Shown piece by piece: positions 13,268 through 16,721 of a stretch of 64,000 nucleotides of DNA (position 1 is its first letter; each line of letters starts with the position of its first letter). The stretch is from contig JBCNUU010000001.1 of the NCBI GenBank assembly GCA_039630545.1, forward strand, positions 203,175 to 267,174. Reading direction: 5' to 3'. This stretch comes from Endomicrobiia bacterium (GTDB lineage Bacteria; Elusimicrobiota; Endomicrobiia; DTEH01). Position numbers and translations under genes: made by a program. The notes under the pieces are model-generated. The model was not told the DNA's origin. It made no database searches and saw only the letters and a program-made list of their open reading frames with translations.

Positions 13268-13768
13268 ATGAAATGTCCTTTTTGTGATGAAAACGATACC
13301 TATGTTGTGGATACCAGAACTCTGAAAGGAGCTTCTGTAATTCGTAGAAGAAGAATTTGCAAAAAATGCCAAAAAAAGTTTACTACATATGAACGTGTAG
13401 AAGAACCTTTAGTAAATGTTATTAAGTCTGACGGGAGAAGAGAACCTTTTGATGCAAACAAGATAAAAGAAGGAATATTAAAAGCAGTAGAAAAACGTCC
13501 TGTGACAGTTGAGGAGGTAGAAAAAATTGTTGCTGAAGTTCAACAAGAAATCTCAAAAAAGTTTGTTTTAGAAGTTCCAAGTTCTCTTATTGGGAAAATT
13601 GTTTTAGAAAAGCTTTTTCCTGTTGATCCTGTAGCATATGTGAGGTTTGCATCTGTTTATTACCAGTACGATAGTATAGATAAATTTCTTAAAGAGCTTA
13701 AAGAACTTAAAAAGAGATATTTATTAAAAGATAAAAAAAAGAAAGGTAATAAAAATGCAAAATCATGA
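13268..13768 (+). CDS. nrdR: Transcriptional repressor NrdR
   Basis: MKCPFC zinc ribbon, RRRRICKKC, FTTYE, ATP-cone, VAYVRFASVY. Confidence 0.97.
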   Translation: MKCPFCDENDTYVVDTRTLKGASVIRRRRICKKCQKKFTTYERVEEPLVNVIKSDGRREPFDANKIKEGILKAVEKRPVTVEEVEKIVAEVQQEISKKFVLEVPSSLIGKIVLEKLFPVDPVAYVRFASVYYQYDSIDKFLKELKELKKRYLLKDKKKKGNKNAKS

Positions 13769-14879
13769 AGTTATAGAAACATTATATGATGAAATAAAAT
13801 CTTCAGGATATAACTTAGAAGAGGTTGTTTCTGGTGATGTTGTGCCTCCTGATACGGTGAGAGAAAAAATTAACAAATTAGTCTCTCTGGATCCTAATTT
13901 TTATTCTAATCTACTATCAAAACTTTTATCTGAGGAATTTGATGAGGAAGTAGCTAAAAAATTATGGTTTGAGATTCTTGAGCATAAATACCGCATTTCG
14001 GAAAAATTAGGAAGAAATGTGGGAATTAGAGTTGCTACATTGGATTATCTTGAAAATATAAAGAAGATTATCAAAGCTCCTAAAATTATAGAAGAAGAAG
14101 AATTTATAAAAACTTTAAAATTAGCTACAAGAGACCCCCTTACAGGGCTGTACAACAGAAGATATTTATTTGACTATGTTAGACAGTTGATAAGAAAAAA
14201 ACAAAGATTTTCCTTAGCTTTTTTAGATCTGGATGGATTTAAAAGATATAATGATAAAGAAGGACATCAAGCAGGTGATGTGATTCTTCAAGAATTTGCT
14301 GCAGTTTTAAAATTAAGTTTTAACGATGAAAACAAATATATAGTTGGAAGATATGGTGGTGATGAATTTATTTTATGTATGCTTGATGTAGATAAAAGAA
14401 CAGCTCAGGATATCCTGGATAAATTTAGACAGGAAATTCAAAGACAGTTTGCTGAAATAAAAATAACAGTAAGTATAGGTGTATGTGAATACAATCCGGA
14501 TCTTGAAAAATCAGATGTTAAAGATTTTGATGAACTTATTGAAAAAGCTGATGAACTTTTGTATAGAGTAAAAGAATTTGGTGGGAACAAGGTGTTTAGA
14601 TTAAGAACAATATTTTTTTATTATACTCCGGAGGGAAATTCTGCTCCTAAAGAGGTGGCGGTGGTGGGTGATTTTAATAACTGGGATAGAAAAAAAGGGC
14701 AGATGCAGTTCATATCACAACAAAACTTGTGGTGCAAAAAAATGTTACTTAAACCGGGAGTTTATAAGTATAAGTTTCTAATAGATACAAACATATGGTT
14801 AGCAGACAAAAATGCTAAATTTTTTGCTGATGATGGATTTGGTGGTAAATGTTCTGTCATCACAGTAGCTGAGAAATAA
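13755..14879 (+). CDS. Diguanylate cyclase (GGDEF) with an N-terminal helical domain and a C-terminal CBM48/AMPK-beta-like glycogen-binding domain
   Basis: DPLTGLYNRR, DLDGFKRYND.EGH..GD, RYGGDEF; C-terminal APKEVAVVGDFNNW..W....LKPGVYKYKFLID..W..D....DDGFGG. Confidence 0.88.
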   Translation: MQNHEVIETLYDEIKSSGYNLEEVVSGDVVPPDTVREKINKLVSLDPNFYSNLLSKLLSEEFDEEVAKKLWFEILEHKYRISEKLGRNVGIRVATLDYLENIKKIIKAPKIIEEEEFIKTLKLATRDPLTGLYNRRYLFDYVRQLIRKKQRFSLAFLDLDGFKRYNDKEGHQAGDVILQEFAAVLKLSFNDENKYIVGRYGGDEFILCMLDVDKRTAQDILDKFRQEIQRQFAEIKITVSIGVCEYNPDLEKSDVKDFDELIEKADELLYRVKEFGGNKVFRLRTIFFYYTPEGNSAPKEVAVVGDFNNWDRKKGQMQFISQQNLWCKKMLLKPGVYKYKFLIDTNIWLADKNAKFFADDGFGGKCSVITVAEK

Positions 14880-14904
14880 AAATTTCATTAATATTAAATA
14901 TTAA

Positions 14905-14913
14905 AAGGGAGGT
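14905..14913 (+). promoter_or_regulatory. Strong Shine-Dalgarno sequence of the histone-fold gene
   Basis: AAGGGAGGT 8 nt upstream of ATG 14922. Confidence 0.75.
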
Positions 14914-14921
14914 ATAAATTT

Positions 14922-15104
14922 ATGTCAGAAATTCTTGTGGTAGTAAGTAAAATAAAAAAGATGGTAAAAGAGCAAGGTTTAAGAACAGGTGAAGGTTTTA
15001 TAGAAGCTCTATCTAAAAAAGTTGAAGAAATGGTGAAAAATGCTGCCCAGAAAGTGAAATCTGAAGGTAAAAAGAAAACCCTCGGAGCTGAAGATTTAAT
15101 GTAA
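14922..15104 (+). CDS. Bacterial histone-fold protein (singlet, Bdellovibrio Bd0055-like)
   Basis: 60 aa, Lys-rich; LVVVSKIKKMVK (alpha1), GLRTG (L1), FIEALSKKVEEMVKNAAQKVK (alpha2), GKKKTLGAEDL (L2/alpha3, cf. RKTxxxxD). Confidence 0.85.
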   Translation: MSEILVVVSKIKKMVKEQGLRTGEGFIEALSKKVEEMVKNAAQKVKSEGKKKTLGAEDLM

Positions 15105-15111
15105 GTTTTGT

Positions 15112-15150
15112 TAAAGATTGTAAAGATTGTAAAGATGTAAAGTTGTAAAA
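15112..15150. repeat. Decaying tandem repeat, unit TAAAGATTG (about 4.5 copies)
   Basis: TAAAGATTG TAAAGATTG TAAAGATG TAAAGTTG TAAAA. Confidence 0.85.
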
Positions 15151-15161
15151 ACTATTTATAA

Positions 15162-15755
15162 ATGACAAACAAAATAATTATTGGTATTACAGGACCAAAC
15201 GCTTCAGGAAAAAGTGAAGTAATAAAATATCTTGTAAAAAAAAAATTCTACAGTGCTTCTTTATCAGATATTTTAAGAAAAAAAGCAAAGGAGTATAACT
15301 TAGGATCTGACAGAGAGACACTTATTAAGTTAGGTAATGATTTACGCAAGAAATATGGTTGTGGGATTTTAGCAAAATGGCTCATAAAAGATCTCGATAA
15401 GGTTTTTAAAAATAAAATAGTCATAGATAGTATAAGAAATGTTTCTGAAATAAAAGAATTTAAAAAGAAATTTAAAGATAATTTCTATCTTATTTATATT
15501 ACAGCACCCAAGAAAAGAAGATTTAAATTTATGCAGTTGCGCAAGCGACAAGGAGATCCTGTTAGTTATAAGGAATTTTTAGAAATAGAAAAAAAAGAAA
15601 ATTCTAATAAATCTTACCAGCAACAGATAAATAAATGTAAGGAATATAGAGATTTTTTTATTAATAATAACTCTACATTAAAAGAGCTTTATAAAAAAGT
15701 TGATATAATTATAAAAAAAATAGATGAGAAAAATTTTGCGACCAAGTTGGGATGA
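15162..15755 (+). CDS. P-loop nucleotide kinase-like protein (dNMP/dephospho-CoA kinase-like; resembles the kinase domain fused to some dCMP deaminases)
   Basis: IGITGPNASGKS Walker A, SLSD, LGNDLRKKYG.GILA, VIDSIRN.SE, FINNNSTLKEL. Confidence 0.75.
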   Translation: MTNKIIIGITGPNASGKSEVIKYLVKKKFYSASLSDILRKKAKEYNLGSDRETLIKLGNDLRKKYGCGILAKWLIKDLDKVFKNKIVIDSIRNVSEIKEFKKKFKDNFYLIYITAPKKRRFKFMQLRKRQGDPVSYKEFLEIEKKENSNKSYQQQINKCKEYRDFFINNNSTLKELYKKVDIIIKKIDEKNFATKLG

Positions 15756-16206
15756 ATATTTTTTGAAATTAGCCTTCCTTGTAGCTGAAAGATCCACCTG
15801 CTTGAGGCATCATGTAGGTGCTGTTATTGTTAGGGATAGGAGAATTTTAACTACAGGTTATAATGGTGCGCCTGTTGGATGTCAAGATTGTTTGCAACTT
15901 GGTTGTTTAAGAGATGAGTTAGGTGTTCCTTCAGGAGAAAGACATGAAATTTGTCGTGCTGTTCATGCTGAGCAAAATGCTATTGTTCAAGCAGGAGTTC
16001 ATGGGATAGACATTACTAATGCAACAATGTATTGTACCCATTCACCCTGTGTAATCTGTGCCAAAATGATAGTTAATGCTAAAATAAAACGGTTTGTAAC
16101 AGCACAAGATTATTCAGATAATAGTTTTAGAAAATTATTTGACGAGGCAAAAATAGAATTTGTTAAGTTACCTATTCCATTGTTGGAAATTTCTTTGCTG
16201 CTTTAA
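15724..16206 (+). CDS. dCMP deaminase (ComEB/DCD family)
   Basis: RPSWDEYF, RSTC..HHVGAVIV, TGYNGAP, HAEQNAI, PCVIC zinc motifs. Confidence 0.93.
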   Translation: MRKILRPSWDEYFLKLAFLVAERSTCLRHHVGAVIVRDRRILTTGYNGAPVGCQDCLQLGCLRDELGVPSGERHEICRAVHAEQNAIVQAGVHGIDITNATMYCTHSPCVICAKMIVNAKIKRFVTAQDYSDNSFRKLFDEAKIEFVKLPIPLLEISLLL

Positions 16207-16208
16207 TT

Positions 16209-16721
16209 TTATGCCCATTCTCTTACAGGATAGTTATTTTTGTAAACAATTTTTGTTTCGTATATTGGTTCAACAATCTCGTCAGGTTTAAACCATAATT
16301 TTATTTCTCTTTCTGCTGATTCTTCAGAATCAGAACAATGTATAACATTTTCCATAATTCCTTTTTTGTTAATTCGTCCATATGCTCCTCTTATAGTGGT
16401 AGGATCGGCTTCAAGAGGGTTAGTAGCACCAGCTATTTTTCTTACTCTCTCTATAGCATCTACTCCTTCATAAACAAATACTAATATGCGTTCATATTCT
16501 GGACCGTATATTTTACCGGAAAAATATTCATATAAATCATCAAAGAATGGTTTGTCAACAAGATGTGCATAATGTTTTTCTGCCAGCTCTCTTGTTACTT
16601 TTACAACTTTTGCACCAATTATTCTTAATTTAGCTTCAGAAAGACGTGTTAGTATGTTGCCTGTTAATGATTTTACTAAGGCATCTGGTTTTATTATTAT
16701 TAAGGTATACTGGTGTTTCAT
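16209..16721 (-). CDS. ndk: Nucleoside diphosphate kinase
   Basis: TLIIIKPDA, HYAHL.DKPFF, GATNP..A.P.TIRG, NVIHCSDS (catalytic His), AEREIKLWF. Confidence 0.95.
   Translation of the reverse strand: MKHQYTLIIIKPDALVKSLTGNILTRLSEAKLRIIGAKVVKVTRELAEKHYAHLVDKPFFDDLYEYFSGKIYGPEYERILVFVYEGVDAIERVRKIAGATNPLEADPTTIRGAYGRINKKGIMENVIHCSDSEESAEREIKLWFKPDEIVEPIYETKIVYKNNYPVREWA

Follow-up and report, generated by a model that had tools for sequence, protein, structure and literature searches.

An α3-truncated histone predicted in an Endomicrobiia bacterium has the clamp and L2 loop typical of its Elusimicrobiota relatives

The window analyzed here, a stretch of 64,000 nucleotides from a genome of the class Endomicrobiia (Elusimicrobiota), contains a 60-residue gene whose product we classify, by sequence and predicted structure, as an α3-truncated singlet histone of the HBb kind. 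It is probably a housekeeping chromatin protein, a dimeric 'bacterial dimer' histone of the Elusimicrobiota type that would bend DNA non-specifically in the manner of HBb. The earlier note on this DNA had named a bacterial singlet histone at this locus, and that call is right, but the family is already known and has close copies in published catalogues, to which the gene adds one more. The clade mixes features of HBb and HLp, with an HBb-like N-terminus on the one hand and a basic tetramer-site residue, a tight C-terminus and an L1 arginine on the other, and is a natural test case for the RD clamp and for what switches such histones between dimer and tetramer.

Table 1. Coordinates of the histone gene, its sequence features and its neighbors in the window
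Feature	Position	Strand	Basis or remark
60-aa α3-truncated singlet histone gene (Elusimicrobiota clade, HBb-like; predicted)	14922..15104	+	sequence, fold, dimer model
Shine-Dalgarno (SD) site, core GGAGGT at 14908-14913, 8 nt spacer to ATG	14904..14913	+	sequence
α1 basic patch S9, K10, K12, K13, K16	14946..14969	+	alignment to HBb
L1 Arg21-Thr22	14982..14987	+	Arg aligns with HTkC RV-motif Arg and HBb N22
Lys44	15051..15053	+	at HTkC R45 / HLp R49 (face-to-face tetramer residue), HBb S45
L2 and α3: one-residue insertion, Lys51 for clamp Arg, K52-T53, E57 (R57 in HBb), D58	15066..15095	+	
GGDEF plus carbohydrate-binding (AMPK1_CBM/CBM48) gene, behind nrdR	13755..14879	+	upstream context, not conserved beyond genus
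P-loop kinase-like and dCMP-deaminase-like genes	15162..16206	+	downstream context
ndk	16209-16721	-	converges on deaminase gene

Gene, ribosome-binding site and fold

The open reading frame runs from ATG to TAA, and its translation is identical to the 60 residues quoted in the earlier note, which had described a basic protein behind a strong SD. The product is indeed basic (pI 9.52, 6.6 kDa, 12 Lys and 1 Arg versus 9 Asp/Glu), and its GGAGGT site pairs at -12.9 kcal/mol when scored against a generic anti-SD motif; a search of the assembly did not turn up the 16S tail of the host itself. This pairing is stronger than that of all 53 genes of at least 100 aa in the window, and 35 of the 1302 genes of this length in the whole genome attain the same energy. 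Among 1281 plus-strand ATGs in the window a single one reaches it, the histone start itself. An SD of -7 kcal/mol or stronger is also present in 79 of 80 named orthologues.

The minus strand opposite the frame is interrupted by stops. Because the codons differ from those of eight same-family orthologues by 171 synonymous and 75 non-synonymous changes, the gene is under purifying selection, and 14922-15104 is a real gene. It is the sole histone match in the host genome, by protein search and by profile search, and stands alongside two genes of the HU/IHF family.

That the gene may be highly expressed, as the earlier note proposed, draws on the strong SD and on what is known for HBb. Codon bias is uninformative in this genome, since ribosomal-protein genes barely differ from the rest (leave-one-out mean -0.002 versus -0.016, sd 0.03 in 60-codon windows) and 35% of random windows score at least as high as the histone. 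A scan of 14700-15300 returned 0 promoters and 0 terminators.

By sequence, the best match in the PDB is HBb/Bd0055 (8fvx, E 3.5e-8), followed by weaker matches to HTkC (E 0.0016) and HLp (E 0.0027). Profile search finds HBb at E 2.3e-12, and with a broader profile HMfA, HMfB and H4 also come up, at E values from 2e-4 to 1e-2. Both kinds of search place the protein closest to HBb and hence to the bacterial dimer class, which is itself defined by sequence clustering (PMC11390915). Other traits of that class are conserved α1 lysines, a handshake homodimer that is dimeric in solution, non-specific binding and bending of DNA, and high abundance. Among family models, Pfam PF00808 scores E 0.031, below the cut-off, and NCBIfam gives no match. 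The name 'hydantoinase B' carried by some JGI homologues was rejected, as it traces to a weak chance Pfam match (E 0.13).

The AlphaFold2 model (pLDDT 84) has helices at residues 2-17, 24-47 and 56-59, and Foldseek places HBb at ranks 1-4, with a top E of 8.5e-3, a TM of about 0.77 and no row at E <= 0.001. In VIA-align, with 56 residues aligned each, HLp gives Z 6.4 and rmsd 2.2, HBb Z 6.0 and 2.0, and HTkC Z 6.0 and 2.3; by predicted fold the three are tied, with Z values that are modest for a helical protein. All three programs find the helix-loop-helix-loop-helix arrangement of the histone fold, as the earlier note had expected. The Bd0055 motifs given in that note, an LVVxSKxKK start and a GRKTxxAxD end, are likewise confirmed by alignment to HBb.

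The α3 histones are defined by an α3 of 3-4 residues (Schwab 2024, PMC11390915), together with an α2 shorter than that of nucleosomal histones and the RxTxxxxD motif, or RD clamp. In the query, α2 aligns to HBb without gaps and α3 comprises residues 56-59. The very short α3 remarked on earlier is thus present, at one turn, but it is a defining trait of these histones and not a special one. HBb of Bdellovibrio bacteriovorus (PDB 8FVX, 8FW7, 8CMP, 9EZZ, 9F0E) has the fold in common with the query, as well as the short α2 and α3, a near-identical N-terminus, S9-K10, K12, K16, K52-T53 and D58. The query differs in being 60 rather than 64 residues long, in an L1 one residue shorter and an L2 one residue longer, and in having Lys for HBb R51, Arg for N22, Glu for R57 and Lys for S45.

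Clamp, L2 loop and occurrence in Elusimicrobiota

We compared the query with passages of the histone literature (PMC11390915, PMC10627809, 10.1101/2023.01.26.525422, PMC11317129, PMC12701072, 10.64898/2025.12.06.692711, 10.1101/2025.06.26.661778). According to PMC12701072, two bacterial histones have been characterized so far, HBb and HLp. Schwab et al. count Elusimicrobiota as one of the phyla in which 'bacterial dimers' chiefly occur (PMC11390915), and Table S1 of Hocher et al. 2023 catalogues singlet histones from the phylum, for example OGS21531.1 and OGS00328.1 (PMC10627809). OGS21531.1 is 72% identical to the query over 60 of 60 residues with no gaps, and the Elusimicrobiota rows in the Hocher alignment have the same L2 insertion and Lys clamp (PMC10627809). 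A literature search that took in few subscription journals returned no experiment on any Elusimicrobiota histone and no paper on such a histone, its Lys clamp or its family-wise loss. The Schwab source data give histone categories under UniProt accessions only; one accession prefix there presumably stands for Elusimicrobia, and it was not used as evidence.

The query keeps the T and D of RxTxxxxD at canonical spacing, with the Arg replaced by Lys. The earlier note had singled out this Lys and an extra Lys; Lys51 and one extra L2 residue are there, but they are not special. Our main census covers 69 of the 124 other matching Elusimicrobiota genomes, the best 29 and the weakest 40. The one-residue L2 insertion occurs in 69/69, the clamp position is Lys in 60 and Arg in 9, D58 is kept in 69/69 and position 57 is Glu in 68. 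Among 80 named loci the clamp is Lys in 77 and Arg in 3, a count that is partly circular because one search pattern held the L2 motif. Distant representatives without the insertion have Arg at the clamp in 64 of 74 cases (22 of 112 could not be anchored). Because the insertion is universal in the census and distant proteins that lack it mostly have Arg, the Lys clamp with its extra L2 residue is, on comparative grounds, the ordinary Elusimicrobiota form and a phylum signature.

That the clamp residue is always Lys or Arg, together with an invariant D58, suggests that K51 and D58 pair as a K-D clamp. In the query, Lys51 most likely still forms a clamp with Asp58, though a weaker one. An α3 histone can do without an intact RD clamp, since HTkC has His at the clamp Asp site in our alignment.

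Named close homologues come from Endomicrobia and Elusimicrobia. A search of 401 genomes of the phylum found 125 that match the query protein and 131 that match a wider profile, most with one match. Profile matches are near-universal in most families (8/9 in f1, 9/9 in f25, 10/10 in f27 and 43/48 in f29), and fall to 3/47 in f24; none was found in the 89 genomes searched in f2 or the 118 searched in f20. Going by class, genome size and taxonomy, families f2 and f20 are presumably the gut-associated Endomicrobiaceae and Elusimicrobiaceae. Two f2 genomes that are 99% complete and have no histone match do give HU matches.

The absences are probably losses in gut-associated lineages, and they represent two or three events at most because kin genomes are not independent. 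In keeping with the presumed identity of f2 and f20, Endomicrobium proavitum, Ca. E. trichonymphae and three Elusimicrobium genomes were searched by Hocher et al. and do not figure in the histone table of that study; its cladogram figure may already show these absences. Such sharp presence and absence by family would allow chromatin with and without the histone to be compared within one phylum. A histone locus titled Ca. Endomicrobium trichonymphae (L057) has 63% GC versus 26-33% in the loci labelled Endomicrobia, and its label may be wrong.

With the wider profile, 31 of the 131 matching genomes give two or more histone matches. In some Elusimicrobiota there is an additional histone of a different kind (L115-L124), which has the complete face-to-face (FtF) signature of Arg, Asn and RKT; several of these proteins have a Lys-rich N-terminal tail and cysteines. 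One 279-aa protein (P0125) has two histone-like stretches behind an unrelated N-terminal part, the last with an L2 loop of the Elusimicrobiota type. A tree built by a quick method from 60 columns leaves 63 of 100 forks open. In it, 20 named Elusimicrobiota rows group with the query at an SH-aLRT of 91, below the starred level; some rows without the L2 insertion lie inside this group, and the second histones are placed elsewhere.

Dimer model, DNA contacts and the tetramer site

A four-copy model of the query scores 0.84, and the best of 3 controls scores 0.00. In a calibration that used two copies, 20 of 30 proteins with solved pair structures and 1 of 23 with solved single-chain structures came up to the mark for this score. 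The four-copy runs have at least 84% of contacts in common, at a pLDDT of at least 83. Confident contacts fall between copies 3 and 4 alone and involve antiparallel α2 helices (residues 30, 34, 37 and 38) and the L1-L2 loops (20 with 53 and 54); residues 44, 48 and 60 are not named, which marks them as uncertain. Two chains form a confident handshake dimer in this model, although the pass may reflect likeness to the solved HBb. The proposal in the earlier note of a variant that forms dimers or non-nucleosomal oligomers therefore survives as to the modelled dimer, but the traits that made the protein a variant are the phylum norm.

The ten HBb residues with the most DNA contacts have been defined by simulation (PMC11317129), and DNA-contact residues in that study include S9, K10, K12 and K16. 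Six of the ten are identical in the query (S9, K10, K12, K16, K52 and T53) and four differ (T8V, N22R, S24G and R57E, the last a charge reversal). In the HBb crystal R57 contacts a phosphate (PMC11317129), and R57E removes this contact. In the same paper, Hu et al. mention Elusimicrobiota as one of the groups that have the HBb contacts. The α1 patch, S9, K10, K12, K13 and K16, is invariant in 102 of 102 aligned homologues, from searches in which the homologue set was the best 120 of 272, and K52-T53 is also invariant among aligned homologues.

This conservation bears on whether the histone fold might serve a role away from DNA, for example as partner of a neighboring gene product. The non-canonical clamp, R57E and neighbors that are fixed within the genus would fit such a role; invariant α1 lysines and K52-T53, and neighbors that change from family to family over 29 loci, make it very improbable.

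Position 21 is Arg in 69 of 69 phylum copies. This L1 Arg is not peculiar to the Elusimicrobiota clade, because 55 of 90 distant representatives have it too. The alignment with HTkC, whose RV motif is described in 10.1101/2025.06.26.661778, would put Arg21 at the sprocket-arginine position, and we infer its equivalence to HMfB R19 through HTkC. Hocher et al. describe the sprocket position as not conserved in bacterial histones.

In the mechanism that we favor, two chains would pair as a handshake dimer, and the dimer would bind the DNA backbone without sequence preference through two α1 patches and two paired L1-L2 loops. It would bend DNA locally as HBb does, beside the two HU/IHF-family proteins. 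The loss of the HBb R57 contact may be offset by Arg21 if its side chain enters the minor groove.

The binding mode of HBb itself is disputed between bending and coating. A dimer that coats straight DNA end-on as a filament, with no bending, was first proposed for Bd0055, and would agree with the crystal structure of Hocher et al., which has one L1-L2 site on straight DNA; the N-terminus that links dimers in the Bd0055 crystal is near-identical in the query. We consider coating distinctly unlikely here, given that later crystal forms, solution data and simulation favor bending of DNA by HBb, and that an Arg at the sprocket position would be expected to favor minor-groove bending.

Against the assignment to the HBb class stand the four changed contact residues, the three-way tie in fold, and the Lys at the clamp and the Lys or Arg at the FtF site of this clade. 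Bacterial dimers as described by Schwab et al. keep RKT and have no FtF Arg, the absence of the FtF residues R48 and N52 (HMM numbering) being a class trait (PMC11390915). Position 44 is Lys in 66 and Arg in 3 of 69 phylum copies, and in 68 of 69 the chain ends 1-2 residues past D58; HTkC shows the same pattern and HBb (S45, 64 aa) does not. The HTkC tetramer needs R45 and a short C-terminus, and its R45A mutant is a dimer. The HTkC authors expect Lys at R45 to work more weakly and describe Lys as 'occasionally observed' in FtF histones. HTkC, a proven tetramer, likewise lacks an intact RD clamp, has an L1 Arg and carries Glu where FtF histones have Asn.

These features would suit an FtF-like arrangement, in which Lys44 and the C-terminal carboxylate of the opposite dimer close a toroidal tetramer, maybe only on DNA, that wraps 50-60 bp. 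We think this unlikely. None of the 69 copies has the FtF Asn (E48 in the query), and the clamp Arg, which in HLp belongs to the tetramer network (R55, with the conserved Asn N53), is Lys in 60 of 69. The published AlphaFold2 classification files Elusimicrobiota under dimers. Of 74 distant representatives that lack the insertion, 14 have Lys at site 44 too, and its role there may be no more than to pair with Glu or Asp at position 48, one turn on (60/69 phylum copies). In addition, the full FtF signature is held by separate histones of the phylum (10 of 10 fetched).

The query resembles HTkC (9F2C) and HLp (9QT0-2) in fold (Z 6.0 and 6.4), in a basic residue at R45/R49 and in a short C-terminus, and has the L1 Arg and Glu49 in common with HTkC. 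It differs in having Lys for the tetramer-site Arg and no Asn53, and the clamp Arg is mostly Lys in the clade. A broader proposal would make the clade an intermediate between the HBb dimer and the FtF tetramer: a lysine-latched, weak or DNA-dependent tetramer that wraps DNA and has a sprocket Arg, misfiled as 'dimer' by prediction, and ancestral to the phylum, with independent losses in its two large families that are probably gut-associated. We give this proposal a low probability.

Genomic neighborhood

The gene order is nrdR, the GGDEF-CBM gene, the histone, a kinase-like gene and a dCMP deaminase-like gene, then ndk on the other strand. The histone has its own reading frame, 42 nt behind the GGDEF gene and 57 nt ahead of the P-loop kinase-like gene. 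Both downstream genes follow the histone in 7 of 7 other genomes of the genus, and 4 of these 7 have the GGDEF gene ahead of it. Over 29 loci, judged from translations, other families have different neighbors, often with nuoA-nuoB further down. A tRNA-Met lies directly upstream of the histone in 2 of the 29 loci; at the present locus no tRNA is nearer than 48368. No functional link between the histone and its neighbors is implied.

The gap that follows the histone stop is filled, at 15112-15145, by a 9-nt unit, TAAAGATTG, in four imperfect tandem copies, and no terminator-like site was found there. The kinase-like and deaminase-like genes are likely housekeeping nucleotide genes, since the pair is conserved in the genus, near nrdR and ndk. 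Each matches one half of NF041025, a model for anti-phage dCTP deaminases, at 69 and 86 of 400 bits, far below its cut-off. The GGDEF protein ends in an AMPK1_CBM/CBM48 glycogen-binding domain, and its N-terminal region matches DUF4032 weakly.
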